Shown here: positions 2,873 to 32,798 of the stretch, piece by piece
Position numbering within the stretch: the first letter of the stretch is position 1
Layout of the letters: each line of letters begins with the position of its first letter
Assembly (NCBI GenBank): GCA_013178275.1
Contig: JABLWZ010000002.1
Coordinates: 162,416-226,415 of the forward strand
DNA: 64,000 bases
Reading direction: 5' to 3'
Source of the DNA: Bacillota bacterium
GTDB taxonomy: Bacteria; Bacillota; Ch66; Ch109
The notes under the pieces: model-generated
Database searches by the model: none
What the model saw: the letters and a program-made list of their open reading frames with translations, nothing else
What the model was told of the DNA's origin: nothing
Translations under genes and position numbers: made by a program

Positions 2873-2944
2873 TTTACATCACAAAAAAGAATTTGGAGAA
2901 AATAAGCTTTAGTTGCGTTAGTGTTTAATCTGGAGGAAGGACGA

Positions 2945-3850
2945 ATGAAAATCAAAAATGTTGAGGACCCGGACGTCAGCCCCCTGCTCAAGTACACCCT
3001 GATAGTATCGCAAAAGCATGTCAAGTGGATAACCGACACCTTTAACCTGGAGAAGCTTCCCATCCCGGTCGGCTTCACCGACAACGACGTGAACCTGAAC
3101 GCCCCACGGCTGTACTCGGACATATTCTACCCTTTTTACCTGGAGTACCTGGCCAAGTTTGGTATGATCGCCTACAGCCTGTCCCTCCCGCTGATAGCAC
3201 GCTCCGACGTCCGTGAATTCACCTCCAACTCCATCGCCACCTCTACCGAGATTTCCAACCGTGTGGTGGTGCTGATCAACAAGGGACTGTACGTCAGACC
3301 GCCTTACATCTCGCTGCCCAAGAAGGTTGACTTCGTGAACAGGAAAGGCCTTCTGGGAAGCTGGCTCGGAAAACAGCGGCCGCTGCTGGCCTCCGAAATA
3401 CTGAACATCTTCGGCAATCTGCGGAGTAAAGTGGTGATCCATACCCTCTGCCCGGGCCTGGCGCAGGTGGCGGAGCTTAAAGATGTACGCAAGCACATGC
3501 TCAAGGGCAAGGAACTGGCCACAAATCATATCGAGATCCTCAGCTCTTTCTTTCGGGATGAAGACATCCCCGCGTCGTCCAGCTGGGACGCGGGGATAAC
3601 CGACTCGGTAGTGGCCCCGTTCTCCGAGAAGCTGATGATGTTCCACGTAACCATGGTGACTACGGCAGCCATCATCGCCAGCTACGGGGCGAGCATGGCA
3701 GTCACCATGCGTCGCGATCTGGTAGCTGCCTATACCAAGCTGATCGCGGAGACGATGGCCTTCGCCGAGGACGGCATAAACATAATGGTCGATAAGGGCT
3801 GGCTGGAACAGCCACCGCAGAGCGTCGACCACGTAGGGCTGGCCGCGTAA
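2945..3850 (+). CDS. DUF3231-family protein (tandem ferritin-like), apparently missing the family N-terminus
   Basis: Motifs PIPVGFTDNDVNLNAPRLYSD, KGLYVRPPYI, APFSEKLMMFH, GWLEQPP. Paralog of 18150..19217 but lacks its LSSSEIANLW helix. Confidence 0.75.
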   Translation: MKIKNVEDPDVSPLLKYTLIVSQKHVKWITDTFNLEKLPIPVGFTDNDVNLNAPRLYSDIFYPFYLEYLAKFGMIAYSLSLPLIARSDVREFTSNSIATSTEISNRVVVLINKGLYVRPPYISLPKKVDFVNRKGLLGSWLGKQRPLLASEILNIFGNLRSKVVIHTLCPGLAQVAELKDVRKHMLKGKELATNHIEILSSFFRDEDIPASSSWDAGITDSVVAPFSEKLMMFHVTMVTTAAIIASYGASMAVTMRRDLVAAYTKLIAETMAFAEDGINIMVDKGWLEQPPQSVDHVGLAA

Positions 3851-9163: not shown

Positions 9164-10451
9164 AAAAAAATTTAAAATTAAAACTATCGTTGGCCTTTTT
9201 CTGCTGGTTCTGATTTCCTTAACCATGACTGGGTGTTGGAACCGGCGGGAAATGAACGATATAACACTCAGTACCGCTATTGGCATAGACCGGGTGGTGG
9301 TGGACGGCCGGCCCTTGTTCCTCTTTTCCGTGCTCGCCGCGAGGCCAGCTGTACCAAGCGGAGGCGCCACGGCCGGGGGCGGCGGCGGTACTACTGGGCC
9401 AAGGGTCGCCGGCGTGGGAACGGTTATCTCTACTGAGGGGGAGACCGTTTACGACGCGATAAGGAACTACTCCATGCGCACCTCCCGGCAGCTTTTATTG
9501 AGCAACACCTTGGTAATAGTCTTCGGGGAGGAACTGGCCAAGGAAGGGATAGGAGAGGTGCTCGACTTCTGCAATCGCCAAAAGGATATCCGTGAGCGTA
9601 CATGGGTAGTGGTCTGCGAAGGTCTGGCCCGCGACGCCCTCCAGTCCCAGCCCGAGGTGGAATCGATAACTTCTGTGGAGTTGGATAAGATGATCCCCCT
9701 AAATCAATCCCGGGCCTCCAAGGTGGCAATAGCCAACCTGTTCCAAGTGACGCGTGACCTATTGACCCCGGGGAAAGAGGCGGCGGTAAGCAATATGAAA
9801 CTGTTCATGCCGCCGGAAACCAGTTCGCCCATCCGCCCGACCGAACCAGCCCAGCCCCCCGGTTCTCCAAGCGGGAAAGGCGGTGGTGCCGAAATTCAGG
9901 CTCAGAACAAGACCTTTGCCCTAAGCGGGGCGGCGGTGTTCCGGGACGACCATTTGATAGGCCGGATGGACGAAGAGGAAACTCAGGGTATGTTATTTAT
10001 CAAAAACCAGGCTGTCGGCGGGATTATACCCATTGCCTTCAACGCCCTGGAGAAAAACGCCTCTTTTCTTTATCGGGACGTGAAAGCAAAGGTTAAGCCG
10101 GTAATTAACGAGGACGGCAGTATAATGTTTGAAATCCGCATCAAGGGCAAAGTAGAACTGCAGGAACAAAAGAACGCGGCAATCGACATAGCCGAGGAAG
10201 ACATAAAACATGCCGAGGAACTGATAAACCAGGAAGTTGAGCGCCGCTGCATCAAGGCGGTGGCCAGGAGCAAGGAGTTAAAGTCGGACGCTTTTGGGTT
10301 CGGAGAAAAGATTTACCGATCAAAACCTAAAGCATGGGAGGAGATTCAGAGCCAGTGGGGAGAAATCTTCCCAACAGTTATAGTAAGCGTAACAGCAGAT
10401 TTTAAAATCGAGCACCTCGGGTTAATAAACAAGCCAATAGTTATTCAATAA
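9153..10451 (+). CDS. gerKC: Ger(x)C family spore germination lipoprotein
   Basis: Lipobox MTGCWNRREM, AIGID, GEELAKEG, SDAFGFG. Confidence 0.9.
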   Translation: MTFRKKFKIKTIVGLFLLVLISLTMTGCWNRREMNDITLSTAIGIDRVVVDGRPLFLFSVLAARPAVPSGGATAGGGGGTTGPRVAGVGTVISTEGETVYDAIRNYSMRTSRQLLLSNTLVIVFGEELAKEGIGEVLDFCNRQKDIRERTWVVVCEGLARDALQSQPEVESITSVELDKMIPLNQSRASKVAIANLFQVTRDLLTPGKEAAVSNMKLFMPPETSSPIRPTEPAQPPGSPSGKGGGAEIQAQNKTFALSGAAVFRDDHLIGRMDEEETQGMLFIKNQAVGGIIPIAFNALEKNASFLYRDVKAKVKPVINEDGSIMFEIRIKGKVELQEQKNAAIDIAEEDIKHAEELINQEVERRCIKAVARSKELKSDAFGFGEKIYRSKPKAWEEIQSQWGEIFPTVIVSVTADFKIEHLGLINKPIVIQ

Positions 10452-10636
10452 ATACCCTTAAACCGTTGCCGTTACCCGAAAAGGATAAATAAACCCGATT
10501 AACTTGTGGGAGAAGACGAGAGGGCTGATTCGACAGATATTTCCGCACCTGCATACCCGGGCAGGAACTAAGGAATAGATCAATTTTATCTGCTGTAATC
10601 CCATGAGAAAAAAGCCATTATTTACCGAAAATTTGG

Positions 10637-10673
10637 CTTGGCGTACAAATTTCTTTTTTGGTACGGTCCCCCC
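10637..10673 (-). repeat. Tn3-family-like terminal inverted repeat
   Basis: Minus strand GGGGGGACCGTACCAAAAAAGAAATTTGTACGCCAAG; closely similar to the copy at 19312..19349. Confidence 0.65.
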
Positions 10674-10906
10674 TATTACAGCAATTCTGGCACGACCACC
10701 AACAATAAATAACTGTATAAAATGGAAATCCGGAAAGTAGCGTAAAAAGAGTCATACGCAATTAAGAGAAATAGCCATTTACTAGTTTTGCATTTCCAAG
10801 GGATCCTATTTTATAATCTTGATTCAGAAAGAAAAAACGTTACTGAAGGACTCTTTAAATGCCCTACAGAGTTTTATCGTTTTCATTTATGGGATGTTAG
10901 AAAGGA

Positions 10907-11293
10907 GTGCTTGAGATGTCAAAAAACAATAAGAACAGGATGGAGAATAATCTTAATTATCAGGGAAAAACAAGTAGCAAAATGAATCTAATAGAACCTG
11001 AAATTCTTTTGTTATTAAAAAATAACCCATCGCATGGTTACGAACTATTTAAAAGGTTATCGGATATGGAAAACGATATAAACGATCCTGGAACACTCTA
11101 CCGCAATTTAAGAAGTATGGAGGAAAAAGGATTAATAAAGTCAGCTTGGTCGACAGAAAAATCAGGTCCAGCTAAAAGAGTATACCAAGTTACAAATATA
11201 GCATCAGAAGAAATAGAGGAATGGAAAGAAGAAATTAAGAGGAGAATTACGCTTCTTGATGATCTACTAAAAAAAGTCGATCAATTGGTTTAA
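10907..11293 (+). CDS. PadR-family transcriptional regulator
   Basis: ILLLLKNNPSHGYEL, PGTLYRNLRSMEEKGLI, GPAKRVYQVT. Confidence 0.85.
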   Translation: MLEMSKNNKNRMENNLNYQGKTSSKMNLIEPEILLLLKNNPSHGYELFKRLSDMENDINDPGTLYRNLRSMEEKGLIKSAWSTEKSGPAKRVYQVTNIASEEIEEWKEEIKRRITLLDDLLKKVDQLV

Positions 11294-11493
11294 TTCAAGA
11301 ATTAGATATATATACATATTGTCCAGGCAGGATTAATATAAAGAGCTTTGGATAGGAGGCCTTTATGCTGGGATAAACATTAAGGCATAAAAACCTCTAC
11401 CATATTATTTTACCTTTGCGGGAACCCTAACTGATACTAATAGAACCCACTATGAAAATTTAATTTAATTTTAGAGGGATTTATCGGACAATA

Positions 11494-11522
11494 TTGACAA
11501 AAGTTGCCTTACCAAATATACT
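11494..11522 (+). promoter_or_regulatory. Sigma-A promoter
   Basis: TTGACA-N17-TATACT. Confidence 0.75.
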
Positions 11523-11526
11523 ATTA

Positions 11527-11553
11527 TCAGCACTCAATAGAGACGAGTGCTAA
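11527..11553 (+). promoter_or_regulatory. CIRCE element (HrcA operator)
   Basis: TCAGCACTC-N9-GAGTGCTAA, one mismatch to TTAGCACTC-N9-GAGTGCTAA, 4 bp downstream of the -10 box. Confidence 0.85.
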
Positions 11554-11868
11554 CACGGAGTGTTTTAATATTCCTTTTTACTTTAATGATATTTATTAAT
11601 AGCGTTATATCGTTATTGATTCTTATCTTTAGAACTAGAAGGGGGTTTTAAAGCGCTTTTTGTATTCTAATCAATTCTTTTGCATTTAATAAAAGTTGAA
11701 CCTCTTGTTTTCCACATAAGGAAGGAATAAGTCTAAGACCCTTGATTAAGGTTATCCTTTAACATTGAAATGTTTTCTTATGCACATAACTCTGAAATTT
11801 AAGATTAATTCTAACATGCGTTAATGGCATAAAACAGTTTTATCTATCGCGAGGAGAGTGAAAGATAG

Positions 11869-12870
11869 TTGATCAAGACCTTTGTGACAAAATTAGCGGG
11901 GAATGACAAACAGTCTTATCGAGAGCTTTTCAAAAGGTATCCGGGAAACCCAATCCTTACATCAAAGGACTGGCCTTATGCTGCAAACACAGTGTTTAAT
12001 CCGGCAGCGACAATGTATGACGGAAAGGTTTTGCTACTAGCCAGGGTTGAGGACAGGCGGGGTTTTTCCCATCTAACCAAAGCTATAAGTGACGATGGTA
12101 TGAGCAATTGGGAAATAGAAGAAAAGCCTACTTTGGAGGCTGATCCTGAGAATTACCCTGAAGAGGCGTGGGGAATTGAGGACCCGAGGATTACGTGGCT
12201 TGAGGAAATTGGGAAGTTTGCCGTTGTATATACTGCATACTCAAAAGGGGGGCCGCTGGTCTCGATGGCTTTGACCAGGGACTTCGAGATCTTTGAAAAG
12301 CTTGGTTCTATCATGCCGCCAGAGGACAAGGATGCCGCTCTGTTCCCCAGAAGGATTTGCGGCAAATGGGTGCTCGTTCACAGGCCAATCCCTGCCCGCC
12401 ATGAGCCAGGGGCGCATATTTGGATATCGCGTTCGGACGACCTTAAATACTGGGGTCAGCATCACATATTAATCAGAGCCAGAAAAGGCGGATGGTGGGA
12501 CGCAAATAAGGTGGGGATTAATACTCCACCGCTGGAAACTTCCGAGGGGTGGCTCGTATTGTACCACGGCGTAAAGCAAACCGCGGCTGGGGCTATTTAT
12601 AGGCTGGGACTCGCGCTCCTGGATCTCGAGAACCCATTTAAGGTACTGCGTAGGAGTGATGAGTGGGTATTTGGTCCGCAAGAGTTTTATGAGAGGAAAG
12701 GGGACGTGGACGATGTCGTGTTCCCCTGTGGATGGGTACACAACAAAAATACTGGGGAGATAAAAATGTATTATGGCGCGGCGGATACCTGTATCGCCTT
12801 GGCGACAGCTAACCTGGATGACCTGCTTGAATACATTAAAAGGTGCCCTAATTACAGGATAAATGAATAA
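11869..12870 (+). CDS. GH130 beta-mannoside phosphorylase/glycosidase
   Basis: RYPGNPIL, VFNPAA, GIEDPRIT, DKDAALFP, YYGAADT. Confidence 0.88.
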   Translation: MIKTFVTKLAGNDKQSYRELFKRYPGNPILTSKDWPYAANTVFNPAATMYDGKVLLLARVEDRRGFSHLTKAISDDGMSNWEIEEKPTLEADPENYPEEAWGIEDPRITWLEEIGKFAVVYTAYSKGGPLVSMALTRDFEIFEKLGSIMPPEDKDAALFPRRICGKWVLVHRPIPARHEPGAHIWISRSDDLKYWGQHHILIRARKGGWWDANKVGINTPPLETSEGWLVLYHGVKQTAAGAIYRLGLALLDLENPFKVLRRSDEWVFGPQEFYERKGDVDDVVFPCGWVHNKNTGEIKMYYGAADTCIALATANLDDLLEYIKRCPNYRINE

Positions 12871-12907
12871 AAAAATATAAAAGGACTCGGTTAGGAGGGA
12901 TCACATT

Positions 12908-13954
12908 ATGAAAGCATTGTTTTTGGCAGGCGGAATAGGAACCAGGTTAAGACCCATTACAGAGGATCTACCAAAACCCATGGTGCCTATAATGGGCAAA
13001 CCACTTCTCGAAAGGAATATTGAAAACCTAAAGAAATACAACATAATAAATGAAATTGTATTGAGCACCTGCTACAAGCCACATAAAATTGAAAACCACT
13101 TTGGAGATGGAAAGAAGTTTGGGGTAAAAATCAGTTACATATCCGAAGATATTCCGTTAGGCACAGGAGGGGCAATAAAAAATGCCGAATGTTTTTTTGA
13201 TGATACTTTTTTGGTGTTTAATGCGGATATAATAAGCGACATTGATATTTTGGATATGATAAGGTTCCATCACGAAAAAAAAGCATTAGCCACTATCGCT
13301 GTGACCCAGGTTGACGACCCTTCTGCTTATGGGGTTATCGAGCATGATAAAAATGGTTATATTACTGCGTTCAAGGAAAAGCCTAAGCCCCATGAAACCA
13401 AATCAAATCTTATTAACGCCGGTGTCTACATCTTTGAGCGGGAGCTGCTTAATGAAATTTCTTCAAGCAAAGTAGTATCCATTGAACGGGAGACATACCC
13501 CCAGCTTCTTGAAAAAGGTTTAAAAATGGCTACGTATCACAAGTGTTCTTATTGGCTTGATCTCGGTACACCAGATAAATACATAAAAGTGCATAAGGAT
13601 ATATTAAAAGGTAAATTGGAAATTGACGGTCTTAACTTTAACGAGAGTATTCAATTCATCAGTAAAACGGCCAAAATACATGAAACCGCAAGGCTCTATG
13701 GGCCTGTTTATATAGGCGAAAATGTGGAAATCGGCGCTTTCTCTATCATTGGCCCGAGTACCGTTTTGTGCGATGACTCCTATGTGGGAACTGGAGCTAA
13801 GGTTGTGGGTAGCGTGGTTTGGGATCGAGTAAGTGTGGGAAGCGGGGCTTTGGTTGCAGACTCCGTATTGATGTCAAATTGCACGGTTGATAGAAACAGC
13901 GAAGAGTACAATGCCGTATTAACTGAAAACTTCAGCCATCCCATTGCGGTGTAA
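12908..13954 (+). CDS. Mannose-1-phosphate guanylyltransferase-like NDP-sugar synthase
   Basis: LAGGIGTRLRPIT..PKPMVP, PLGTGGAI, FKEKP, WLDLGTP, C-terminal hexapeptide beta-helix. Confidence 0.88.
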   Translation: MKALFLAGGIGTRLRPITEDLPKPMVPIMGKPLLERNIENLKKYNIINEIVLSTCYKPHKIENHFGDGKKFGVKISYISEDIPLGTGGAIKNAECFFDDTFLVFNADIISDIDILDMIRFHHEKKALATIAVTQVDDPSAYGVIEHDKNGYITAFKEKPKPHETKSNLINAGVYIFERELLNEISSSKVVSIERETYPQLLEKGLKMATYHKCSYWLDLGTPDKYIKVHKDILKGKLEIDGLNFNESIQFISKTAKIHETARLYGPVYIGENVEIGAFSIIGPSTVLCDDSYVGTGAKVVGSVVWDRVSVGSGALVADSVLMSNCTVDRNSEEYNAVLTENFSHPIAV

Positions 13955-13976
13955 AAAATAGAGGGGGTTTTCCAAT

Positions 13977-15152
13977 ATGGTTCCGAACCGGATGAGAAAC
14001 ATTGCTTTTTTAAGCACCTACCCTCCCCGGGAATGCGGTATCGCCACCTTTACCCAGGACCTTGTAATGGAGCTTGGCAGGGTTAGTCTTCTGAATAAAC
14101 CCAAGGTTGTGGCGGTGAGCAACAATGATTATAACTATGATGACAATGTCATAATAGGACTTTGGCAGCATGATCGGGAAGATTATTTCAAGACTGCTCT
14201 TGATATTAATAAAACCAATATTGAGCTCCTGGTGATGGAGCATGAGTATGGCATATTTGGCGGGGAAGCAGGCGAATTTGTCTTAGACTTCGTCGAAAAC
14301 CTTCGGATACCTTTGATCACAACGCTGCATACCGTTCTTTCCAGCCCCTCTGCAAAACAAGAACAGGTATTGAGGACACTCGGAGAAAAGAGCGCGAAGG
14401 TTGTCACTATGGCCCAAAATACAAAGCCGCTCCTGGAAGCGGTTTATGGAATCGAGCCTTCAAAAATAGAAGTAATACACCACGGCGTGCCGTACAGAAA
14501 CCCTGAGTCGCGGGATAGGCTGAAGGAAAAACAAGGGCTTAATGGGCGTAGCGTAATCAGTACTTTTGGACTGTTGAGTCCTGGAAAGGGATTGGAGTAC
14601 GCTATTGAGGCCATCGCCCAGATAGCAAAAGAACACAAAGATATTGTTTACCTTATACTCGGGCAGACACACCCCTGTGTAAAAAAAGAAGCTGGAGAAG
14701 AGTACCGGAAAAAACTCATGGAAATGGTTGAAAAGCTCGGGATTAATGAACATGTAAGATTTGTTGATAAATACCTTTCCAAAGACGAAATTATCCGCTA
14801 TCTGCAAATGTCTGATATTTATATGACGCCGTATCTCAATAAGGATCAGGCGGTAAGCGGTACCCTCGCCTATGCCATCGGATACGGCAGGATTGTCATA
14901 TCTACACCATACAGCTATGCGAGGGAAATGCTTGCCGATGGTAGAGGACTATTGGCTGAGTTCTGTGATGCTAATTCCCTCGCCAAAAACATCAAATATA
15001 TACTGGAAAACCCGGAAGCCAAAAAAGAAATGGAAAGAAGGACTTTAAGTGCTGGCAGGACTATGATGTGGAGACATGTTGCCAAACAGTATACGAAGCT
15101 TTTTATTGGCACAATGGAAGAGTTGAGAATTTCCGGAAGTATGGTTGTATGA
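13977..15152 (+). CDS. GT4 glycosyltransferase
   Basis: STYPPRECGIATFT, HEYGIFGG, TFGLLSPGKGLE, SGTLAYA. Confidence 0.88.
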   Translation: MVPNRMRNIAFLSTYPPRECGIATFTQDLVMELGRVSLLNKPKVVAVSNNDYNYDDNVIIGLWQHDREDYFKTALDINKTNIELLVMEHEYGIFGGEAGEFVLDFVENLRIPLITTLHTVLSSPSAKQEQVLRTLGEKSAKVVTMAQNTKPLLEAVYGIEPSKIEVIHHGVPYRNPESRDRLKEKQGLNGRSVISTFGLLSPGKGLEYAIEAIAQIAKEHKDIVYLILGQTHPCVKKEAGEEYRKKLMEMVEKLGINEHVRFVDKYLSKDEIIRYLQMSDIYMTPYLNKDQAVSGTLAYAIGYGRIVISTPYSYAREMLADGRGLLAEFCDANSLAKNIKYILENPEAKKEMERRTLSAGRTMMWRHVAKQYTKLFIGTMEELRISGSMVV

Positions 15153-16153
15153 TGAAAGACGATCATATTTTCAGGCTTACCGATGATACTGGGATGCTCC
15201 AGCACTCAAAATATGGAGTGCCTGATCTTGCCCATGGATATACCACTGACGACAATGCCAGGGCATTGATCATGGCAACAATGCTCTATGAAAAGTATAG
15301 AAAGAAAAAATATCTTGATCTTATATTCAGGTACTCTTCTTTTATACTAAATGCCCAGATTAAGACAGGCAAGTTTAGGAACTTTATGAGCTATGACAGA
15401 AAATGGCTTGAAGAGGAAGGCTCGGAGGATTGTTTTGGCAGGTGCCTTTGGGCAATCGGGTATGCTTTGTCCAATAAGTATATTCCACAAGGGGTAAGGT
15501 ATACCCTACTCCGTGTTTTAAAAAAAGCCCTGCCCAATGTGGTTTCTTTAAACTGGCCCAGAGCCAAGGCTTATTCGATTATAGGCCTTGCATCCCTTAA
15601 CTCTGAAGACACACAAAATTTAGTATTTGACACGGCGTCATCTCTTTGCCGTCTGTATGATGAACAAAAGGACGAAAAGTGGAAATGGTTTGAAAAAAGT
15701 GTAACGTATAGCAACAGTGTTTTCCCCTGGGCACTTTTTGCAGCTCAGAAGATTTTTAATGAAAAAAGGTTTCTTGAGGTAGCCGAAGAAAGCCTGGATT
15801 TTCTTGAAAGTATAACTTTTAAGGACGGTTTTTTTAAACCGGTGGGCTGCAACGGATGGCTTGTAAAAGGCGGGACACCAGCGGAGTTTGATGAACAACC
15901 CATTGAGGCATGTGAAACTGCTCTGACATATCTAGAAGCCTATTCAGTTACCAGGAGGAAGAAATATAAAGCGAAAGCAAAAAAATGCCACGCTTGGTAT
16001 GAAGGGGCAAATTCTAAAGGCATAAAACTCGTTGACGGTGAAACCGGCGGCTGCTTTGACGGTTTGACTGGTAGAGGAGTAAACCAGAATCTTGGGGCTG
16101 AAAGCCTTGTATCTTATTGGATATCTTATCTGGCGCTTTCTGATTTAGATTGA
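15149..16153 (+). CDS. Six-hairpin glycosidase-like protein (domain often fused to GT4)
   Basis: LTDDTGMLQH, GYTTDDNARAL, GSEDCFGR, FDEQPIEA, NQNLGAES; ATGA overlap with the GT4 stop. Confidence 0.7.
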   Translation: MMKDDHIFRLTDDTGMLQHSKYGVPDLAHGYTTDDNARALIMATMLYEKYRKKKYLDLIFRYSSFILNAQIKTGKFRNFMSYDRKWLEEEGSEDCFGRCLWAIGYALSNKYIPQGVRYTLLRVLKKALPNVVSLNWPRAKAYSIIGLASLNSEDTQNLVFDTASSLCRLYDEQKDEKWKWFEKSVTYSNSVFPWALFAAQKIFNEKRFLEVAEESLDFLESITFKDGFFKPVGCNGWLVKGGTPAEFDEQPIEACETALTYLEAYSVTRRKKYKAKAKKCHAWYEGANSKGIKLVDGETGGCFDGLTGRGVNQNLGAESLVSYWISYLALSDLD

Positions 16154-16170
16154 TAAAAGGAGAGACCAAA

Positions 16171-17535
16171 ATGAGTGCTGTTCATGAACAGATTTTCAGA
16201 CAATACGATATACGGGGTATATTCGGAAAGGAATTGACTTTAAGAGATGCAGAGCTTATCGGGAGAGCTTTTGGAACCTATATTAAAAGACGGGGCGAAA
16301 ATAATGCCATTGTCGGCAGGGATACCAGAAGATCGTCCCCCGACCTGTTTAACAGCCTGGTAAAGGGATTTCTTTCTACCGGGATAAATGTGAAAGATAT
16401 CGGGGTGGTAGTATCGCCGATATTCTATTATTCAACAATCCTTTATGGTATAAAGTCAGGGATAATTGTCACCGCTAGCCATAATCCGGCAAACTATAAC
16501 GGCTTTAAGATCCAGTTTGACGGAAGGACGCTATACGGTGAAGAGCTTCAGATTATAAAGAAATTGATTCAAGCCGACGATTTTGAGAACGGTCAGGGAA
16601 AACTGACCTGCCAGTCTCCGGTTAAAGATTATATTGGAATGGTAAAAGAAAAGATAAATCTCACAGGCCGTAAACTGAAGGTTGTGGTTGACTGTGGCAA
16701 CGGCACAGCGGGACTGTTTGCGCCGACTCTATTAAAAGAACTAGGCTGCGAGGTGATCCCCCTCTATTGCGACTCAAACCCTGATTTTCCAAACCATTTT
16801 CCTGATCCAGTAAAGACAGAAAATCTAAAAGATCTTATTAGGACCGTAAAAGAAAGCAGAGCAGACTTGGGTGTAGGCTTTGACGGCGACGGAGACCGAC
16901 TAGGGGTTGTGGATAATCAAGGCAATATTATCTGGGGAGATATGCTTATGATTCTTTTCTGGAGGGAAATTATGCCTAAATATCCAGGTGCTACGGCAAT
17001 TGTTGAGGTGAAGTGTTCAGAAACGCTGGTGGAAGAGATAAAAAGGCTGGGCGGAAAGCCCATGTTCTACAAAACCGGGCATTCTCTCATTAAAGCAAAA
17101 ATGAAAGAGTTAGGTACCGTGTTTACTGGTGAGATGTCGGGGCATATGTTTTTTGCCGATGAATACTTCGGGTTTGATGACGCCTTGTATGCATGTGCAA
17201 GGCTTTTGCGCATAATATCAAAAAGTGGCAAGGCATTAAGCGAACTATTTTCAGACGTGCCCAAAACCTTTGTGACCCCTGAAATCAGGATTGAGTGTCC
17301 CGAGGAAGAGAAGCATTATTACGTGGGAAAAGCCAAAAAGTATTTTGAAGCAAAAGGTAAAAAAATCATTGATATTGATGGGGTAAGAGTTCAGTTTGAT
17401 GACGGTTGGGGATTGGTGAGAGCATCTAATACAGGCCCCGAACTCATTGTCCGTTGTGAGGCGAAAACTTTTAATCAACTAGAACAGATAAAGGAGGAAA
17501 TATCAAAATCTATCCGACCGTTTAAAATAGCCTAA
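16171..17535 (+). CDS. Phosphomannomutase/phosphoglucomutase
   Basis: FRQYDIRG, TASHNP, FDGDGDR, GEMSGH, VRASNT. Confidence 0.92.
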   Translation: MSAVHEQIFRQYDIRGIFGKELTLRDAELIGRAFGTYIKRRGENNAIVGRDTRRSSPDLFNSLVKGFLSTGINVKDIGVVVSPIFYYSTILYGIKSGIIVTASHNPANYNGFKIQFDGRTLYGEELQIIKKLIQADDFENGQGKLTCQSPVKDYIGMVKEKINLTGRKLKVVVDCGNGTAGLFAPTLLKELGCEVIPLYCDSNPDFPNHFPDPVKTENLKDLIRTVKESRADLGVGFDGDGDRLGVVDNQGNIIWGDMLMILFWREIMPKYPGATAIVEVKCSETLVEEIKRLGGKPMFYKTGHSLIKAKMKELGTVFTGEMSGHMFFADEYFGFDDALYACARLLRIISKSGKALSELFSDVPKTFVTPEIRIECPEEEKHYYVGKAKKYFEAKGKKIIDIDGVRVQFDDGWGLVRASNTGPELIVRCEAKTFNQLEQIKEEISKSIRPFKIA

Positions 17536-17624
17536 AACTGTCTAATTTATGGTGTCCTTATGTAATTCCGAGATTAAGAATTTTCATTGTGTAACACTAA
17601 GGGTGAATTCGTACAGATCGGTGG

Positions 17625-18116
17625 TTGAGTGAGATAAGCAAGCATCGCAGTCCCTGTATGGCCCTTTTGTGGTCGCTGGCTATTCCAGGCTTCGGGCAAC
17701 TCTATAATCAGGACTATCTGGTCGGTCTGGTCTTGGTAATGCTGGAGTTCGTCATCAACGTCAAGGCAGACCTTAATCTCGCTATATACTACTCGTTTCG
17801 CGGGCAGTTCCTGGAAGTAGATCAGGTAGCCAGAATCCAGTGGCTGCTGTTTTATCCCTGCGTTTACGGTTTTTCAATGTGGCATGCGTACAACAGGGGA
17901 GCTGAAATAAATCGGTGGTTAGGACCAGAAGAGGCGGGTGTAGGAATCCCTTCGAAGACCCATCTAAACGGATGTCTCTTAGGTTTTGCAATAGGCGGAA
18001 CCTTGGGGGTAATTTATAGTTTCTATATAGGGCCGGTACTCTGTGGGCTCATAGGTGGGATTATCGGGGCAACGGTAGGGTCGATATTTGAATATCTCGT
18101 AAGGTTGAGGAAATAA
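17625..18116 (+). CDS. Conserved membrane protein (SPxxALLWSLAIPGFGQLYN)
   Basis: Paralog of 3946..4755; hydrophobic. Confidence 0.7.
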   Translation: MSEISKHRSPCMALLWSLAIPGFGQLYNQDYLVGLVLVMLEFVINVKADLNLAIYYSFRGQFLEVDQVARIQWLLFYPCVYGFSMWHAYNRGAEINRWLGPEEAGVGIPSKTHLNGCLLGFAIGGTLGVIYSFYIGPVLCGLIGGIIGATVGSIFEYLVRLRK

Positions 18117-18149
18117 TAAATAGAAAAATGTGATGGAGGTAATTAATTC

Positions 18150-19217
18150 GTGGAGCAGCAAACGTTTACTGAGGAGAACCTCTCAAAAACTCCACCTTTA
18201 CCAGTAACCCATGAAACACGGCTTTCGTCCTCTGAGATAGCCAATCTCTGGAGGACCTGCATGCTTTATAGCATGACCGCCTGCGTGATGCAGTATTTCC
18301 AGCAGCATGTACAGGACCGGGACATAAAATCTTTAGTACAAGAAAGCTTATCAATAGCTGAAACAGGGGTAAATATCGCCGCCGACTTCTTGAAGAAAGA
18401 CAAGCGTGCAGTTCCAAGGGGTTTTGGTGACCAGGATGTTGACTTGGAAGCACCTGCACTATTCTCGGATGTGTTTTACCTGTATTACATTAGCAATCAG
18501 GTTAAAGTAGGCCTAAATGTCAGTAGTATGGCCTGCACCATGGCGTCCCGCCCCGACATCCGAGATTTCTACATCCAGTGCATAGAGTCGACATTAAGGT
18601 TTTGGGGAAGGATATCGGATACCTTGTTGAGTAAAGGCCTAATGATAAGGCCGCCCTATGTAGCGACAGTAGAGAAAGTGGACTTCGTGAAAAAGCAGAG
18701 CTTTCTGGGGGGCCTGTTCGGTCAGGAACGGTCTCTTTTGGCCATCGAGATTGAGCAGTTGTATTTCGGCACAATCACCAACGAGATAGGCAGGACGCTG
18801 TTGACCGGTTTCCGCCAGACAGCAAGGTCTTCAGAGGTGCGCAGCTATATGGAACGGGGTTTAAAATTGGCATCAAAATACATTAAATTATTCGGAGACA
18901 AACTCCGGGAGGGCGATATAAGTTCACCGATGCACTGGGATGCTTACGGGAACGTGACCGAATCGACCGTGCCGTCTTTCTCGGATAAACTGATGATGTT
19001 CCACACTGTTTTATTGAACGCCTTTGGTATAGCCAACTACGGGGTTTCCCTGTCATCAAGCATGAGAAGCGACGTGGTCACCACTTATGCTGCTATAATT
19101 CCGGAAGTTGCAAGTTACACCGAGGACGGGATTAATATAATGATTGACAACGGCTGGTTCGAGGAACCGCCCCGTGTATTAGACCGTGATAAGCTGTCTA
19201 ATGTAAACATACACTAG
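18150..19217 (+). CDS. DUF3231-family protein
   Basis: LSSSEIANLW, PRGFGDQDVDLEAPALFSD, FSDKLMMFH, GWFEEPP. Confidence 0.8.
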   Translation: MEQQTFTEENLSKTPPLPVTHETRLSSSEIANLWRTCMLYSMTACVMQYFQQHVQDRDIKSLVQESLSIAETGVNIAADFLKKDKRAVPRGFGDQDVDLEAPALFSDVFYLYYISNQVKVGLNVSSMACTMASRPDIRDFYIQCIESTLRFWGRISDTLLSKGLMIRPPYVATVEKVDFVKKQSFLGGLFGQERSLLAIEIEQLYFGTITNEIGRTLLTGFRQTARSSEVRSYMERGLKLASKYIKLFGDKLREGDISSPMHWDAYGNVTESTVPSFSDKLMMFHTVLLNAFGIANYGVSLSSSMRSDVVTTYAAIIPEVASYTEDGINIMIDNGWFEEPPRVLDRDKLSNVNIH

Positions 19218-19440: not shown

Positions 19441-21458
19441 TGCGTATTCCGATGAATTCGACCGCTTATTACGATTCATTTCGACCGGTCGTTATGATTT
19501 AAAAACGACCAGTTATCGGAGCGAAGCGACGCTGGTATTTTCGGTATAGCACACTGGTCGATTTGATTCAAGGTTTAATATAAGTTTTACGCATTGTAGG
19601 TCCATTAATGGCAATTTTGTGAGCATTGTGAACTAGCCGGTCAAGAATTGCATCCGCCAGAGTCGGATCGGTTAAGGCAGCGTGCCAGTGGTCAATGGGA
19701 AGCTGGCTGGCAATCACGGTTGAACGGGCCTGGCTGCGGTCATCTATCACCTCCAGAAGATCTCTTCCCTGGACGTCGGTGAATGGGGCAAGGCCCCAAT
19801 CGTCCAGGATCAGGAGATCGATTTTAGCTATCTTGCCAAGGAGACGGTGGTAGGAACCATCTCCTCTGGCAATCGCCAACTCGGTGAGCAGCCGAGGGGT
19901 TCGGTAGTAACGGGTACTGAGTCCCCCATCTGGGCAGTACCTGGACCGATGGTCTCTGACCAGCTTACAAGTCGGGACGGAGTCCATTCCAGGTACTTCT
20001 GGTGCTGGGAAGGTCGGTGCTGAAGATTGGTCATATACTCCCCCCGGCGGTAACCTCGCAGGTGAACGCTTACCCGACGACCCTTGAACAGTATCTCTAC
20101 CATGCTGGCGGTTAACCTGATGTCGACGCTTTTATGTATCAACTGGTATGGGACGCTGTAGTAGTTATGGTCGATTTCTACGTGATAATCGATATTGACC
20201 TTAGCCTTCTTCCATTGGGCGAACTCGTAACGCTGCGACGGCAGCGGTTTGAGAGCCGGCTTATCCAGGGTTTCGTAGAGTTCTTTGCGACTGCCCTCCA
20301 GCTTCTGAAAGGGACGCTGGTTAAGTTCAACAAGGATTTCTTTGATAGCCTGGTTCAGTTCTCCCAAGGAGAAGAAGATGCGGTTCCTTAACGGGGCCAG
20401 AATCCAGTTCTCTACGGTCTGAACCGCCTTTTCTACCTTGGGTTTATCTTTAGGTTTGCGAGGTCGGGCGGGAATAACGACTGCTCCAAAATGGGCAGCC
20501 ATCTCCTGGTAAGTAGGGTTGATATCGGGTTCGTAGCGGCAGGGATGGGTTACGCCGGTCTTGGTGTTATCGGGAACGATGATCTGGGTAACTCCGCCGA
20601 AGAACTCGAAAGCCCGACAGTGAGAAGAGATCCAGGAGAACATGTCCTGGTTGATGGTCGCTTCGGCGTAGGTGTAGTTACTGGCTCCCAACACGGCGAC
20701 GAAGATGCTTGCCATGCTGATTTCGCCAGTCCTGGGGTCGACTATCGGCACGGTCTGCCCTGCGTAATCGACGAACATTTTCTCTCCCGCTTGGTGTACC
20801 TGGCGGAGTGATGCGTTGAGTGTCTTGGTCCACTGGCGGTAAAGCTCACAAAACCGGCTGTACTGGTAGCCGTCGGGATTCTGCTCCTTATACTCCAGCC
20901 ACAGGAGCTGTAAAGTAACCCCTTTACGCCGAAGTTCCCGATAAACCCAGTCGAAGTCAATGTCCGTTTTATTGTGGCGGGGGGCATCGTTGCCAGGAAA
21001 CAAAAGGGCATCCAATGAGGCATCATCCAGGCTTTCAGGTAGGGGCCAGGTAAGTCCAGCGTCTTGGCTCTGGCGAGATAATCGCTTACTGTACTGTGGG
21101 ATAGGTTGCAGCTCCGGGCGATCTGTCTCAGCCCTAAGCCAGCTTCCCATTTAAGCCGTAGGATTTCTTTGGTTTTACGCATAGACAATCTCCTCCTGGC
21201 CATAGGTATCCTTCATCTCCTCGAATGCTTTTTCTCGGTGATTACGTCACGAGGAGGAGAAAACCCTTTGGCAATTTGATTGTCCAGCGTCACGGTTTTA
21301 TTAAACCCGATTACTACCAGTTCCTACCAGCCGACCATAAGTGGTCGGAATGGATTGGAATGACTGGTCGATTTGCTTCGTAATCGGTGGTCGATTTCAA
21401 TCGTAACAGGTGGTCGGAATGAATCGAAACGGGTGGTCGATTTGGTTCGGAATATGCA
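19441..21458 (-). mobile_element. IS21-family element, defective (istA frameshift, deletion joining istA to the 3' part of istB), with 7-bp target duplication CCGTTTA
   Basis: Ends TGCGTATTCCGA.../...TCGGAATATGCA, with ~23-bp subterminal repeats. CCGTTTA occurs at 19434-19440 and 21459-21465. istA has VDYAG, PDNTK and KVEKAV; istB has LLILDDWG and [10 protein letters not shown] but no Walker A. Confidence 0.9.
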
Positions 21459-21871: not shown

Positions 21872-24800
21872 ATGACATTGTACAGGAAGATGATATGGAT
21901 AATCGGTATTGCATTTGCTTGTGCGATTTTAGTCATGTATCTAGTTTCCCGTACCATTATGCTTAATGGTTTTGATGTAATGGAAAGAGAAGGCGCGTAC
22001 AAAGACATTAATAGAGCCTTAAGTACATTAGATTATAACCTTGCTGACTTAAACAGAACAGTAGGAGACTGGGCTGCCTGGGACGATACCTATTCTTTTA
22101 TTGAAATGAGGGATTATGAATATATTAAAGGGAATTTGCCTGATCAAACCTTTGTTGAACTGAAGATTGACCTTATTGTTTATATAAACCAGGCTAATGA
22201 AATAGTTTATATCAGAGGTTACGATTATCGAAATGCTAAAGATGCCCCTGTATCACAAGGTTTTAATAAACATATCACTGCTGGAAGCCCGCTGATAAAA
22301 CATGACAGTGACGGAAATGGTGTAACCGGCATTATCGAGCTTCCCGAAGGGCCTATGCTTGTGGCTTCAAGGCCAATCTTGAACAGCGAAAGGCAGGGGC
22401 TGGCAAGAGGGACCTTAATCATGGGCCGCTATCTTGATGCACATGTGGTTGAAGATATAGCGAAAACAACAAATCTATCATTTCAAATAAACAGTTTACA
22501 AGATTTGGGGCAGTTGAAAGATGAACTTATTACGGCCGATGATTTGAAACTAATTAAGCCTGTAGATAAGAATTATTTAGTTGGTTATTCGCTGTTAAAG
22601 GATATTTATGGTAAACCGATTTTAGCCCTCAGGGCCACTTTTCCTAGGGAAATTTATCAACAAGGTTTATTCATGATCAAGTATCAAGTCATATTGCTAA
22701 CAACTATTGGGTTTATTTTTGGTCTTTTAATGTTATTGCTTATTGTCAAGATAGTTTTATCAAGGCTGGCTGATTTAAGCTCGGAAGTAGAGACTATAGG
22801 CCGTAAAGGCGATTTTTCCGCCAGGGTGTTGGTAAAGGGAGAGGATGAATTATCGACCCTTGCCGATTCCGTCAATGGAATGCTTGAAGCTCTAGATGTT
22901 TCAAAAGAAGAGATCCGTAGAAGCGAAGAAAAATATCGGCGCATCGTCGAAGCCGCGAATGAGGGGATATGGATTCTCGATGCCGATAACATAACGGTTT
23001 TTGTAAATCAGAAGATGGCCGAAATGCTTGGTTATACGGTTGATGAGATGATGAGGGCAAGCCTATATGATTTTATGTTTAGTGAGGATATTCCGGCGGC
23101 TAAAACTAGACTTGAGCAGCGACGGCAGGGTAAAAACGGGCAGTATGACATCAAGTATCGCCGTAAAAACGGAACAGTTCTATGGGTGATAGTCTCAACT
23201 AATTACATTTTAGATCAAACAGGAAAGTTCGCGGGCTCAATCGGGATGATTACGGATATAACTGAACGAAAGCTGTCAGAAGAGATATTAAAGAGATACG
23301 AACTTTTATATCAAAGGACACGCGACATTATACTTTTTGTACGTCGGGATGGAAAAATTGTCGAGGCTAACCAGTCAGCTGTCAACGCTTACGGCTACAG
23401 CCGGGAAGAACTGCTTAAGCTTAATATCACCGACCTACGCCCCATGGACGCTCCAGCCGTGGTTGAGGGGCAAATGGCTAGGGCAGAAAGCGAAGGAATC
23501 CTGTTTGAAACGTATCATCGGCGTAAAGACGGAAGCACCTTCCCTGTGGAAGTCAGTTCACAAGGTACAACCTTTAGTAATGAAAGGGTTTTACTTAGTA
23601 TAATCCGTGATATCACCACGCGAAAGACGGCTGAGGAGGCGTTGAGAGAATCACAGCAACGACTGGCAGATATAATTAATTTTTTGCCCGATGCGGTATT
23701 TGTTATTGATCTGGAAGGAAAAGTTATTTCCTGGAACAAAGCTGCGGAAGAAATGACCGGTGTAAAGTCAGAAGAGATTATAGGTAAAGGCAACTACGAA
23801 TACGCGCTACCTCTTTACGGAAAAAGACTTCCGGTTCTTATAGATTTAGTGTTTAAAACCGATCAAGAGCTCGAGCGTGACTTCCCCCATGTTGAAAAAA
23901 AGGGAAAAACGCTGTTCGGCGAAAGCTTCTGCCCGGCGATAGGAGAATCGGGAGCCTATCTAAGGGCGACAGCTGCGCCTTTATTTGATTCCAGTGGCAG
24001 AGTCGTCGGGGCAATAGAGTCGCTAAGGGATGTAACAGAAAAAAGGAAGACAGAAGAAGAATTGATACGCATCAAAAAAGCGATAGAGAGTTCAAGCAAC
24101 GCGATATGGATGACCGATAGCCTTGGTGAAAAGATAATATATTATAACGAATCGTTCTCCAGGCTTTTTAAATACACCGGTGAAGAGATAAACGAACGGG
24201 GGGGGATGGTGACCCTGTATGGCGATCCCGATTTGGCCAAAACTGTTTATACTTCTTTGATAGGGGGTAATTCCTGGTCTAACGAAATAAAGCTGTTAAG
24301 CGGCGATGGAGTGTGTTTCCCGGTGTCTTTCTATGCAGATATGGTTCAAGATGAAGCCGGCAACACAATAGCTCTGGTCGGGATTGCCTCGGACATCACA
24401 GTTCAAAAACAGACGGAGTCAGCGTTGATCGAGTCTAGGCAGCGTATGGCAGATATCATAGATTTCTTACCTGATGCCACGATGGTTATCGACAATGAAG
24501 GCAAGGTAATCGCTTGGAACCGAGCGATGGAGGAGATGACCGGGGTAAATCAGGGTGACATGTTGGGTAAAGGGGATTACGAATACTCTATACCGTTTCA
24601 TGGAGAAAGAGTGCCGATATTAATCGATCTGGTTTTAAAATCGGATGAATCGATCGAAAAGAATTATAAGTTTATCCAAAGAGATAGAGGGGTCCTTATC
24701 GCGGAAACCCCATTAAACATTAAAGGTAAAGAAGCTGTCATATGGGGCAAGGCGAATATCTTGTACGATACTAAAGGTAATATAGTGGGGGCAATTGAAT

Positions 24801-26026
24801 CGATACGTGATGTAACGGAACGCAAACGAGCGGAAGCAGCTCTGGCGGAGGAGAAAGAAAGGCTGGCCGTTACCCTGCGCAGCATCGGGGATGGGGTAAT
24901 AACGGCTGATATAGAAGGCAAGATAATGACCATTAACAAGGTTGCAGAGGAGATCACCGGCTGGACCCAGGGAGAAGTGGAAGGAAAACCGTTAGACGAG
25001 GTGTATCAAATAACCGAAAGTAAAATAAGCTCCAAGAAAATTGAACAAACAGATGTTACTAATAAAATACTGCTTACCAAAGGAGGCAACAGTAAAATTA
25101 TTACCGACAGTGCCTCGATTATTAGAGATGAGATCGGTAATTCTATCGGGTACGTCTTGGTTTTTAAAGATATAACGGAGCATAAGAGGCTGGAGGCCCA
25201 GATCGCTTTGTCTCAGAAGATGGAAGCCATTGGGCAGTTGGCAGCGGGTATAGCCCACGAGATAAACACGCCGCTGCAGTATGTTGGCGACAATACAAGG
25301 TTTTTGGAAGGAGCCTTCAAGGATATCTGCACTCTCATAGAGATGTATCACAGATTAACCCAGGATGTGGAAGATAAGCAGCTAAACGATGAACTGATGA
25401 TAATCCAAGAAAAAGAAAAACAAACGGACATAGAATACCTTCTGGGTGAAATCCCGGAAGCGATCAACCAGTCTATGGATGGGTTGAAACGTGTGAGCCA
25501 GATTGTACTCGCCATGAAGGATTTTTCTCATCCCGGCAAGGAAAAATCCTACTCTGATCTGAACCGGGCGATTGAAGGGACGATTACCATATCCAGAAAC
25601 GAATGGAAGTATGTAGCCGAGCTGGTCACTGATTTAGATCCCCAGCTTAATAGGGTGTACTGCGTGATAGACGAAATCAACCAGGTGTTGTTAAACATGA
25701 TAATCAATTCAGCCCACGCAATTATGGAATCCTTGGAGAAAAAAATAATCAACAAAGGAAGAATAGCGGTTTCAACTAGAACGATAGGAAACAATGTGGA
25801 AATCAAAATAAAAGACAATGGGATAGGTATCCCAGAGGAAATAACAAACAAGATTTACGATCCCTTTTTTACCACCAAGGAGGTAGGGAAAGGCACCGGC
25901 CAGGGATTGGCCCTGGCTCATGATATCATCGTTAATAAGCATAACGGTTATATACAAGTAGAATCAACCGTAGGGCAGGGAACCTGTTTTACTATATACC
26001 TGCCTATATCCGAAACGGAGGCATAG
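21872..26026 (+). CDS. Membrane sensor histidine kinase CHASE4-HAMP-multiPAS-HisKA-HATPase
   Basis: DWAAWDDTY (CHASE4), GEDELSTL (HAMP), about six PAS repeats, AGIAHEINTPLQ, FFTTKEVGKGTGQGL. Confidence 0.9.
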   Translation: MTLYRKMIWIIGIAFACAILVMYLVSRTIMLNGFDVMEREGAYKDINRALSTLDYNLADLNRTVGDWAAWDDTYSFIEMRDYEYIKGNLPDQTFVELKIDLIVYINQANEIVYIRGYDYRNAKDAPVSQGFNKHITAGSPLIKHDSDGNGVTGIIELPEGPMLVASRPILNSERQGLARGTLIMGRYLDAHVVEDIAKTTNLSFQINSLQDLGQLKDELITADDLKLIKPVDKNYLVGYSLLKDIYGKPILALRATFPREIYQQGLFMIKYQVILLTTIGFIFGLLMLLLIVKIVLSRLADLSSEVETIGRKGDFSARVLVKGEDELSTLADSVNGMLEALDVSKEEIRRSEEKYRRIVEAANEGIWILDADNITVFVNQKMAEMLGYTVDEMMRASLYDFMFSEDIPAAKTRLEQRRQGKNGQYDIKYRRKNGTVLWVIVSTNYILDQTGKFAGSIGMITDITERKLSEEILKRYELLYQRTRDIILFVRRDGKIVEANQSAVNAYGYSREELLKLNITDLRPMDAPAVVEGQMARAESEGILFETYHRRKDGSTFPVEVSSQGTTFSNERVLLSIIRDITTRKTAEEALRESQQRLADIINFLPDAVFVIDLEGKVISWNKAAEEMTGVKSEEIIGKGNYEYALPLYGKRLPVLIDLVFKTDQELERDFPHVEKKGKTLFGESFCPAIGESGAYLRATAAPLFDSSGRVVGAIESLRDVTEKRKTEEELIRIKKAIESSSNAIWMTDSLGEKIIYYNESFSRLFKYTGEEINERGGMVTLYGDPDLAKTVYTSLIGGNSWSNEIKLLSGDGVCFPVSFYADMVQDEAGNTIALVGIASDITVQKQTESALIESRQRMADIIDFLPDATMVIDNEGKVIAWNRAMEEMTGVNQGDMLGKGDYEYSIPFHGERVPILIDLVLKSDESIEKNYKFIQRDRGVLIAETPLNIKGKEAVIWGKANILYDTKGNIVGAIESIRDVTERKRAEAALAEEKERLAVTLRSIGDGVITADIEGKIMTINKVAEEITGWTQGEVEGKPLDEVYQITESKISSKKIEQTDVTNKILLTKGGNSKIITDSASIIRDEIGNSIGYVLVFKDITEHKRLEAQIALSQKMEAIGQLAAGIAHEINTPLQYVGDNTRFLEGAFKDICTLIEMYHRLTQDVEDKQLNDELMIIQEKEKQTDIEYLLGEIPEAINQSMDGLKRVSQIVLAMKDFSHPGKEKSYSDLNRAIEGTITISRNEWKYVAELVTDLDPQLNRVYCVIDEINQVLLNMIINSAHAIMESLEKKIINKGRIAVSTRTIGNNVEIKIKDNGIGIPEEITNKIYDPFFTTKEVGKGTGQGLALAHDIIVNKHNGYIQVESTVGQGTCFTIYLPISETEA

Positions 26027-26032
26027 ACTGTC

Positions 26033-27259: not shown

Positions 27260-27299
27260 TGCAAGAAAAACAAACATTCCTCTACAGGGGGAGAACTCC

Positions 27300-28439: not shown

Positions 28440-28467
28440 GCATGAAGATTTAGGGAGTGTTAGGAGC

Positions 28468-30053: not shown

Positions 30054-30419
30054 TTGGAAGTTAAGATCAACCGGGAAATCCGGGACTATACCGAGAGCTT
30101 GTTTTTTGGACTGTCCATACGGCAGTTCATTTTTTCTATCCTGGCCGTCCTCGTGGCCATCGGCATCTACTTCGGCCTGCGCAGCTTCTTCGGCACGGAA
30201 ACCGTAAGCTGGATGTGCATTCTGGGGGCCGCCCCCTTTGCCGCCCTCGGCTTTATCCAATACCACGGCATGACGGCGGAGCAGTTTTTGTGGGCCTACA
30301 TTAAGTCGGAATTTCTCCTGCCCAAGCGCCTAACCTTTCACCCGACCAACATCTATTACGAAGCCCTGAAGCCCGCCCTGGAAAAACGCGAAAAGGAGGC
30401 ATGGAAACACCATGATTAA
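30054..30419 (+). CDS. PrgI-family (VirB3-like) conjugation protein
   Basis: MEVKINREIRDYTESLFFGLSIRQ, two TM segments, directly upstream of VirB4. Confidence 0.85.
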   Translation: MEVKINREIRDYTESLFFGLSIRQFIFSILAVLVAIGIYFGLRSFFGTETVSWMCILGAAPFAALGFIQYHGMTAEQFLWAYIKSEFLLPKRLTFHPTNIYYEALKPALEKREKEAWKHHD

Positions 30420-32748: not shown

Positions 32749-32766
32749 ATTAAGCTGCTAAGTACC

Positions 32767-32798
32767 AACGGCTGGCCGTAATTTTCCGGCCAGCCGTT
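32767..32798 (+). terminator. Hairpin after virB4
   Basis: AACGGCTGGCCG-N8-CGGCCAGCCGTT, a perfect 12-bp stem. Confidence 0.55.

Follow-up and report, generated by a model that had tools for sequence, protein, structure and literature searches.

We analysed a 64,000-nt stretch of DNA from a Bacillota bacterium (GenBank assembly GCA_013178275.1, contig JABLWZ010000002.1, positions 162,416 to 226,415 of the forward strand; the whole stretch is called the window below), in which a sigma-A-type promoter is followed by a heat-shock operator of the CIRCE type (controlling inverted repeat of chaperone expression, the presumed binding site of HrcA), by a long leader and by five carbohydrate genes (Table 1). 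These encode a GH130 enzyme, a ManC-like nucleotidyltransferase, a GT4 glycosyltransferase, a six-hairpin protein without a named family (X6H) and a phosphomannomutase/phosphoglucomutase (PMM). The first two intergenic gaps measure 37 and 22 nt, GT4 and X6H share an ATGA overlap, and PMM, whose true start is likely the ATG at 16171, either overlaps X6H or begins 17 nt after it; such tight packing is the layout of a single operon. A previous interpretation made from the letters alone (the sequence-only reading) had listed the same five genes (GH130, mannose-1-phosphate guanylyltransferase, GT4, six-hairpin protein and PMM), and Pfam and NCBIfam models agree with this content, with a guanylyltransferase score below cut-off. 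It had also described a leader of about 315 nt, rich in AT, and the distance from 11553 to the TTG start at 11869 is indeed 315 nt, in a block (11001-12000) of 32.8% GC. As it had stated, no chaperone gene lies nearby, none being recognized by Pfam among the open reading frames (ORFs) of the window that were examined.

Table 1. Features of the mannoside locus and fused reading frames in other loci (positions refer to the window unless preceded by a locus number).
Feature	Position	Strand	Details
Sigma-A-type promoter	11494..11522	+	-35 TTGACA 11494-11499, spacer 17 nt, -10 TATACT 11517-11522
CIRCE TCAGCACTC-N9-GAGTGCTAA, presumed HrcA binding site	11527..11553	.	1 mismatch to consensus; conserved in orthologous loci
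Conserved leader hairpin, terminator-like; putative attenuator or 5' stabiliser	11554..11668	+	about 110 nt; T run 11657-11661
Window-specific leader stretch	11670..11852	+	about 180-199 nt; alignment gap in 9 relatives
GH130, predicted beta-1,2-mannoside phosphorylase	11869..12870	+	PF04041, 6.3e-58; TTG start aligned with the ATG of relatives
Sugar-1-phosphate nucleotidyltransferase with hexapeptide domain, probably ManC-like	12908..13954	+	PF00483, PF00132
GT4 glycosyltransferase (retaining, GT-B)	13977..15152	+	PF00534, PF13439
X6H, (alpha/alpha)6 six-hairpin protein without named family	15149..16153	+	ATG overlaps the GT4 stop (ATGA)
Phosphomannomutase/phosphoglucomutase (PMM)	16150..17535	+	four PGM_PMM domains
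Fused GT4-X6H ORFs	L076:5668-7953; L082:2852-5134; L088:5714-8017; L098:2376-4667; L101:6291-8570		and about 15 further loci

The promoter matches 11 of the 12 consensus positions in the arrangement TTGACA-17-TATACT, and was the sole and best such match returned by a promoter scan of positions 10400-18300. Four nucleotides (ATTA) separate its -10 box from the operator, whose full letters are TCAGCACTC-AATAGAGAC-GAGTGCTAA, so that the sigma-A promoter with a near-perfect CIRCE right after the -10 box, as previously claimed, was recovered. The CIRCE consensus is a 9-bp inverted repeat, TTAGCACTC-N9-GAGTGCTAA, and it was matched perfectly at groES, hrcA and htpG of the same genome. The copy in the window differs from it at one position, is the single match with up to three mismatches in the 64 kb (shuffled sequences predict 0.01), and has its variant arm TCAGCACTC in common with one orthologous locus, L033.

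The host genome is a metagenome bin of 4.77 Mb in 55 contigs, with a GC content of 55.8%. Four CIRCE sites with up to two mismatches were found in it, against none with a reversed-pattern control; the three besides the one described here are perfect, lie upstream of groES-groEL, hrcA-grpE and htpG, and are likewise placed a few bases 3' of a -10 box. An HrcA gene (PF01628, 1.9e-61) adjoins grpE on contig C45 of the same bin, and together with these three canonical sites it supplies the host HrcA regulon that had been expected. HrcA regulons are usually regarded as small sets of chaperone genes. Since htpG (Hsp90; L002, G000:C31:22175-25201) stands under a perfect CIRCE, the regulon of this host is already broader than groE and dnaK.

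The orthologue scan, with one genome per species, gave 80 loci (cited by their L numbers) whose GH130 is 59-83% identical to that of the window. Upstream regions were examined in 39 Bacillota-type loci, the other 41 being mostly from other phyla, plus L050 and L055, and a CIRCE was counted when it had no more than three mismatches and lay at most 700 nt ahead of the first cluster gene. The sequence-only reading had named a lack of CIRCE in orthologous loci as an outcome that would speak against it, and the opposite was observed: a CIRCE precedes the first cluster gene in 21 of the 39 Bacillota-type loci (21 of the 80 overall), and for that reason a leftover promoter of a deleted chaperone gene, which that reading had also named as a way in which it could fail, is very unlikely. 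The CIRCE-positive loci comprise three differing gene orders; L052 and L054 have ManC-GT4-X6H-GH130, with CIRCE preceding ManC, and in L034 the site lies between divergently oriented ManC and GH130. The layout TTGACA-17-TAnAAT-4nt-CIRCE is in register with the window in eight loci (L025-L029, L031, L033 and L079), and TTGACA and a TAnAAT-type -10 box align across 9-10 related loci. In L036, L037, L044 and L047 only 35-48 nt separate CIRCE from the GH130 start, which makes it part of the operon's own promoter. Over 22 CIRCE sites the information content is 1.70 bits per position in the arms and 0.38 bits in the spacer; conserved arms with a free spacer are a hallmark of selection for a repeat that a protein binds. 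On the GH130 tree, every major Bacillota subclade has CIRCE-bearing loci, apart from Negativicutes and the L050/L055 group. A search for CtsR boxes, HAIR elements and sigma-32-like promoters over the window and the 80 loci gave scattered matches, none of them systematically upstream of the cluster; a CtsR-like site in Sporomusa was rejected, as it falls within an ORF.

The genomes holding L079, L031, L025, L058 and L061 have 5, 3, 5, 6 and 6 CIRCE sites, respectively (up to two mismatches; control 0), and in each of the five, one or two of these belong to the mannoside operon. Among the 15 sites of relatives for which loci were returned, 2 belong to the operon, 5 to hrcA, 4 to groEL, 2 to htpG, 1 to hsp20 and 1 to a PF06541 membrane protein; excluding the operon sites, 12 of 13 precede hrcA, groEL, htpG or hsp20. 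Thermoclostridium caenicola has three CIRCE sites, at hrcA, groESL and the mannoside operon. Other cultured species with the orthologous operon are Pseudobacteroides cellulosolvens, which has all five genes and a perfect CIRCE, and Caproiciproducens galactitolivorans.

Two further observations concern the operator. A second, weaker CIRCE (two mismatches) was found 250-550 nt upstream of the main site in four loci (L058:7524, L061:7514, L062:7503 and L029:7274), where it shares the intergenic region with the main site and could be either a tandem operator or the operator of a divergent promoter; the gene that lies upstream in L061 has the opposite orientation. The PF06541 (CmpB-like) membrane protein gene, L116:726-1379 (-), has a perfect CIRCE at 1501-1527, 122 nt upstream, and lies in the genome that holds L025 (Acetivibrio straminisolvens), where it is another candidate non-chaperone target. 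The PF06541-family gene of the window (52197-52967) has no CIRCE.

Directly after the operator, the leader forms a conserved, terminator-like hairpin. The first 152 nt, including the CIRCE stem, have a minimum free energy of -50 kcal/mol (z -8.25), compensatory changes were observed in 10 of the 26 predicted hairpin pairs among 12 related sequences, and a run of five to seven T follows in 12 sequences. A covariance model of the hairpin gave + strand matches in 12 of the 47 sources searched (window, L025-L031, L033, L079, L059 and L093), and it is single-copy in its own genome. An Rfam scan of positions 10400-18500 (E up to 1) gave no match in the leader and only a sub-threshold aspC match inside X6H; a simple terminator scan missed the hairpin, the stem of which is long and AU-rich. 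In L059 and L093 CIRCE is absent and both promoter and hairpin are retained, so that operator and hairpin are separable. We interpret the hairpin as a putative terminator-like attenuator or 5' stabiliser. Its predicted stability decreases from -38 kcal/mol at 37 C to -6 kcal/mol at 70 C, a weakening that is expected for any AU-rich stem and is no evidence for a thermometer. A reading of the AAAGCGCTTT box as a cre site for CcpA was rejected, as L093 and L031 alter the box yet preserve its complementarity with the 5' arm. The window-specific stretch of the leader follows the conserved hairpin and precedes the ribosome-binding site; it contains no promoter-like site on the + strand, and no second copy of it was found in the genome or in the loci.

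The composition and distribution of the operon point to a foreign origin. GC content at third codon positions is 0.40-0.53 in its genes and 0.61-0.63 in the neighbouring ger genes, and none of five genomes of the same family has a GH130 homologue; two more distant genomes of the same phylum carry GH130-GT4-X6H without ManC, with no CIRCE in the 1.5 kb at hand. The GH130 of the window falls in a well-supported tree clade of 12 rows with Pseudobacteroides, Acetivibrio and Thermoclostridium. At the nucleotide level, homology to P. cellulosolvens extends from 11515, at the -10 box, to 17537, with 80.7% identity over 11515-11661 (promoter, CIRCE and hairpin) versus 73-74% over the genes. The operon probably arrived by a horizontal transfer that was not recent; an Acetivibrio/Pseudobacteroides-like lineage would have been the source of the genes together with promoter, CIRCE and leader. 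Because the relatives have a homologous promoter, CIRCE and hairpin, the operator appears to have come along with the operon, without capture of a host operator. The earlier description of a mobile operon plugged into the host HrcA regulon therefore stands in one part only: the genes are foreign, as their composition and their absence from the same family indicate, and they were not plugged in, having brought their own CIRCE.

The surroundings of the operon have the character of a mosaic variable region, in which blocks of 40-45% GC alternate with blocks of 53-65% GC. The contig (C12) has 48.8% GC, with ends of 58-60% GC, in a bin of 55.8% GC. Tyrosine recombinase genes are present at 1786-2721 and 56947-58422, istA/istB of an IS21 element at 19568-21150, an ISL3 zinc-ribbon fragment at 47241-47621, and conjugation-type genes (PrgI, VirB4-like and M23) at 30054-35264. 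A 40-45% GC block at 21872-29463 encodes a 1384-aa CHASE4/PAS histidine kinase followed by three response regulators (HDOD or HD-GYP-type HD_5). Two DUF3231 genes were found (2921-3850 and 18150-19217), the latter directly after the operon. The PadR gene at 10907-11293 was considered as a regulator of the operon and rejected: it stands beside the operon in none of the 80 loci and its composition differs.

With regard to the enzymes, the PDB sequences nearest to GH130 are TM1225 (a beta-1,4-mannooligosaccharide phosphorylase) and UhgbMP. The residue roles given for UhgbMP in Li 2020 (PMC7660257) were mapped onto the GH130 alignment; in that account, the pair at positions Y103/R150 is Y/R for beta-1,4, E/R for beta-1,3 and E/K for beta-1,2 mannosides. 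The window enzyme retains the proton-donor Asp (equivalent to D104), the phosphate pair R168/H231, R59 and D304 (UhgbMP numbering), and all 81 GH130 sequences (window plus 80 loci) have this donor, the R/H pair for phosphate and the E/K specificity pair. The enzyme is predicted to be a beta-1,2-mannoside phosphorylase, and the earlier guess of beta-1,2 specificity agrees with this residue rule. Ladeveze 2025 (PMC12814180) reports that beta-1,2-specific GH130 phosphorylases also show weak GDP-mannose transferase activity. In the plasmid collection the best GH130 match, at 55% identity, was on Deinococcus plasmids, where the neighbouring genes were uninformative. The best NCBIfam model for the nucleotidyltransferase was mannose-1-phosphate guanylyltransferase NF052502 (1.4e-88; 297 bits, under the 440-bit cut-off), and for PMM it was NF046027 PgmG (484 bits, under the 600-bit cut-off); the latter protein is 81% identical to its counterparts in L079 and L028. 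The superfamily domains of both are clear, and their specificity for mannose is putative.

The triad GH130, GT4 and X6H was detected in most of the 80 loci, in many phyla (tblastn map); ManC joins it in Bacillota, and PMM in the window, L027, L028, L029 and L079. GT4 gave weak matches only against the PDB, which were MshA-like. X6H had no match in Pfam or NCBIfam, and its structure model is an (alpha/alpha)6 barrel (predicted local distance difference test score 92.5), as its description as a six-hairpin protein had implied. The best structural match was 7tem (YPO2471, uncharacterised; Z 36.4), followed by AGE-type epimerases (Z 25-28; cellobiose 2-epimerase 27.6), GH76 mannanases (about 26; 26.6) and MmpH (24.3), the identity of the matches being 9-17%, and the alignment has conserved acidic, His and Trp columns. 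In a protein atlas X6H belongs to clusters automatically named 'glycosyltransferase', with PF06662 in 12-19% of members, which can serve as a lead only. In many loci outside Bacillota, GT4 and X6H form one ORF of about 760 aa beside GH130 (Table 1), and five such ORFs were checked with Pfam; the fused form occurs in Chloroflexota, Acidobacteriota, Thermodesulfobacteriota, Spirochaetota and Thermoplasmatota archaea. In the window the two genes are, by their ATGA overlap, translationally coupled. Given the fusion outside Bacillota and the coupling here, GT4 and X6H evidently act together, as judged from gene organization. A complex prediction for the pair scored 0.00, which is evidence neither way.

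On these grounds, the mannoside operon probably belongs, as a true target other than a chaperone, to the class I (HrcA/CIRCE) heat-shock regulon. In the established model of HrcA control, GroEL is titrated by unfolded proteins and HrcA is released from CIRCE. By analogy, in an unstressed cell HrcA bound to CIRCE would cover the likely transcription start and block the sigma-A promoter, and upon titration of GroEL the repressor would leave and the five genes be transcribed; the host HrcA could serve the acquired operon because the operator is shared. The transcript would begin with the CIRCE stem and the conserved 110-nt AU-rich hairpin with its U tract, and the hairpin probably governs the amount of transcription that continues into the genes. 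In the cytoplasm, PMM and the ManC-like enzyme would supply mannose-1-phosphate and GDP-mannose, GT4 together with X6H would make or prime a mannoside, and GH130 would, depending on the direction of flux, lengthen it or degrade it to mannose-1-phosphate via beta-1,2 links. The product may be a soluble mannoside or a short beta-1,2-mannan, built on proteotoxic stress and recycled at no ATP cost.

Mannogen, the beta-1,2-mannan of Leishmania, has been linked to heat tolerance. A wider, tentative and rather improbable proposal would be that many Clostridia make an intracellular beta-1,2-mannoside as a counterpart of mannogen and as an HrcA-controlled arm of the proteotoxic stress response, acting as a sugar 'chemical chaperone' or quick reserve, and that in the Acetivibrio-like clade the hairpin melts when hot, so that heat would be sensed twice (HrcA/GroEL and RNA).

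Several results weigh against a heat-regulated mannoside pathway under HrcA. CIRCE is lacking in 18 of the 39 Bacillota-type loci, in 2 of the 12 members of the window's own clade (L059 and L093) and in the sister L032, and was found in none of the 41 loci outside the Bacillota-type set; where it is absent, no alternative heat-shock operator (CtsR, HAIR or sigma-32-like) lies systematically upstream. The copy in the window carries one mismatch, and hrcA is on another contig, of differing GC, in a metagenome bin whose contamination is 6.39%. A terminator-like hairpin between promoter and genes could stop most transcripts. A search for sequencing runs covering 11300-14300 gave no RNA run, and the one run that contained this part in full is of DNA and may come from the source sample. 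Regarding the product, GH130 is overall closest in the PDB to beta-1,4 enzymes, the beta-1,2 assignment being a two-residue rule, and the operon contains no transporter, exporter or phosphatase that would help to name what is made.

Other explanations of the same locus were weighed against these data. The enzymes may belong to a salvage or envelope route, in which GH130 phosphorolysis yields mannose-1-phosphate, ManC converts it to GDP-mannose and GT4 transfers mannose to an envelope or protein glycan, with HrcA serving stress remodelling and no soluble thermoprotectant being made. The order GH130-ManC-GT4-hypothetical, together with a proposal of GDP-mannose salvage, is described in Chiku 2014 (PMC4264767), and the retained phosphate-binding pair of GH130 indicates that phosphorolysis would be possible. 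However, no uptake system adjoins the operon in the window or in the 80 loci (tblastn map), unlike the 12-gene Thermoanaerobacter cluster, the operon PMM suggests de novo supply from mannose-6-phosphate, flippase, lipid-carrier and export genes were not found in the operon with Pfam or NCBIfam, and GT4 is elsewhere fused to a soluble (alpha/alpha)6 domain; this route is considered unlikely. The hairpin bears on a different possibility, to which we give less credence still, namely that the CIRCE promoter mainly yields a leader RNA of about 135 nt ending at the hairpin and U tract, and that a second signal (protein, metabolite or temperature) is needed for read-through, with HrcA release necessary and not sufficient, or that the operon is largely silent here. 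The strength of the fold, the T run that follows it in 12 sequences and the compensated pairs would fit such an RNA, as would the HrcA-independent persistence of the hairpin in L059 and L093 and the absence of a second promoter-like site on the + strand in 11523-13019. Nevertheless, the AU-rich stem of about 108 nt is unlike compact GC-rich intrinsic terminators, the relatives that bear the hairpin have no other promoter candidate, so that read-through must occur in them, and other CIRCE-bearing clades lack such a hairpin.

The operator itself could also be a non-functional relic, whether as part of a leftover promoter or because HrcA of the host has ceased to use it. Its mismatch, the foreign origin of the operon and the extra 180 nt of leader present in the window alone could be read in this way. 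Yet L033 has the same variant TCAGCACTC, the relatives carry a homologous site and promoter, the other three sites of the host follow the same consensus, and conservation in 21 loci contradicts the leftover-chaperone idea, which leaves a relic highly improbable. A functional, HrcA-responsive operator in front of a mannoside pathway remains the preferred interpretation. If it is correct, a carbohydrate operon among only 3-6 CIRCE targets in several Clostridia connects sugar metabolism with the class I heat-shock response, and it provides a physiological lead for a GH130, GT4 and (alpha/alpha)6 gene set that is widespread from Thermoplasmatota to Acidobacteriota. In the full-text literature (RegPrecise and subscription journals being outside its scope), no paper was found that ties CIRCE or HrcA to GH130 or GDP-mannose genes.

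In comparison with the canonical class I operons of Bacillota (groESL and hrcA-grpE-dnaK), the locus has the same repeat just 3' of a sigma-A-type -10 box, but those operons control chaperones and proteases whereas carbohydrate enzymes are found here, and a long conserved hairpin follows the operator. The operator as such is textbook; the new features are its conserved place ahead of glycan genes, the hairpin in the leader and the fusion of GT4 with the (alpha/alpha)6 protein. The closest gene cluster is that of Thermoanaerobacter sp. X-514, Teth514_1789/1788 (GH130)-1787 (ManC)-1786 (GT4)-1785 (hypothetical), which, as presented in Chiku 2014 (PMC4264767), has the same gene order and a GH130 linkage like the beta-1,2 linkage predicted here; that cluster differs in having two GH130_6 genes, an ABC transporter and GH5, whereas the window has one GH130 (nearest to GH130_2 in the PDB), PMM and no transporter. 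The same authors, whose work characterised the enzymes of Thermoanaerobacter, noted that beta-1,2-oligomannan has no known source there. A functional parallel is offered by the mycobacterial methylmannose polysaccharide system, where, as described in Maranha 2023 (PMC9883506), the GT4 enzyme ManT uses GDP-mannose and is paired with MmpH, an (alpha/alpha)6 endomannosidase, on an intracellular polymannoside; GDP-mannose would be the donor for the window GT4 as well. MmpH is not the best match of the X6H model, ranking behind 7tem and the epimerases (Z 27), and the system has methyltransferases, alpha-1,4 links and, in that description, no GH130. The mannogen of Leishmania, made and recycled by GT108 mannosyltransferase/phosphorylases, differs in enzyme family, kingdom and regulation, although the active sites of GH130 and GT108 are described as alike (PMC10913872, PMC12814180); the likeness lies in a cytoplasmic beta-1,2-mannoside formed from GDP-mannose or mannose-1-phosphate and recycled by phosphorolysis, which for the present operon is proposed from its genes.

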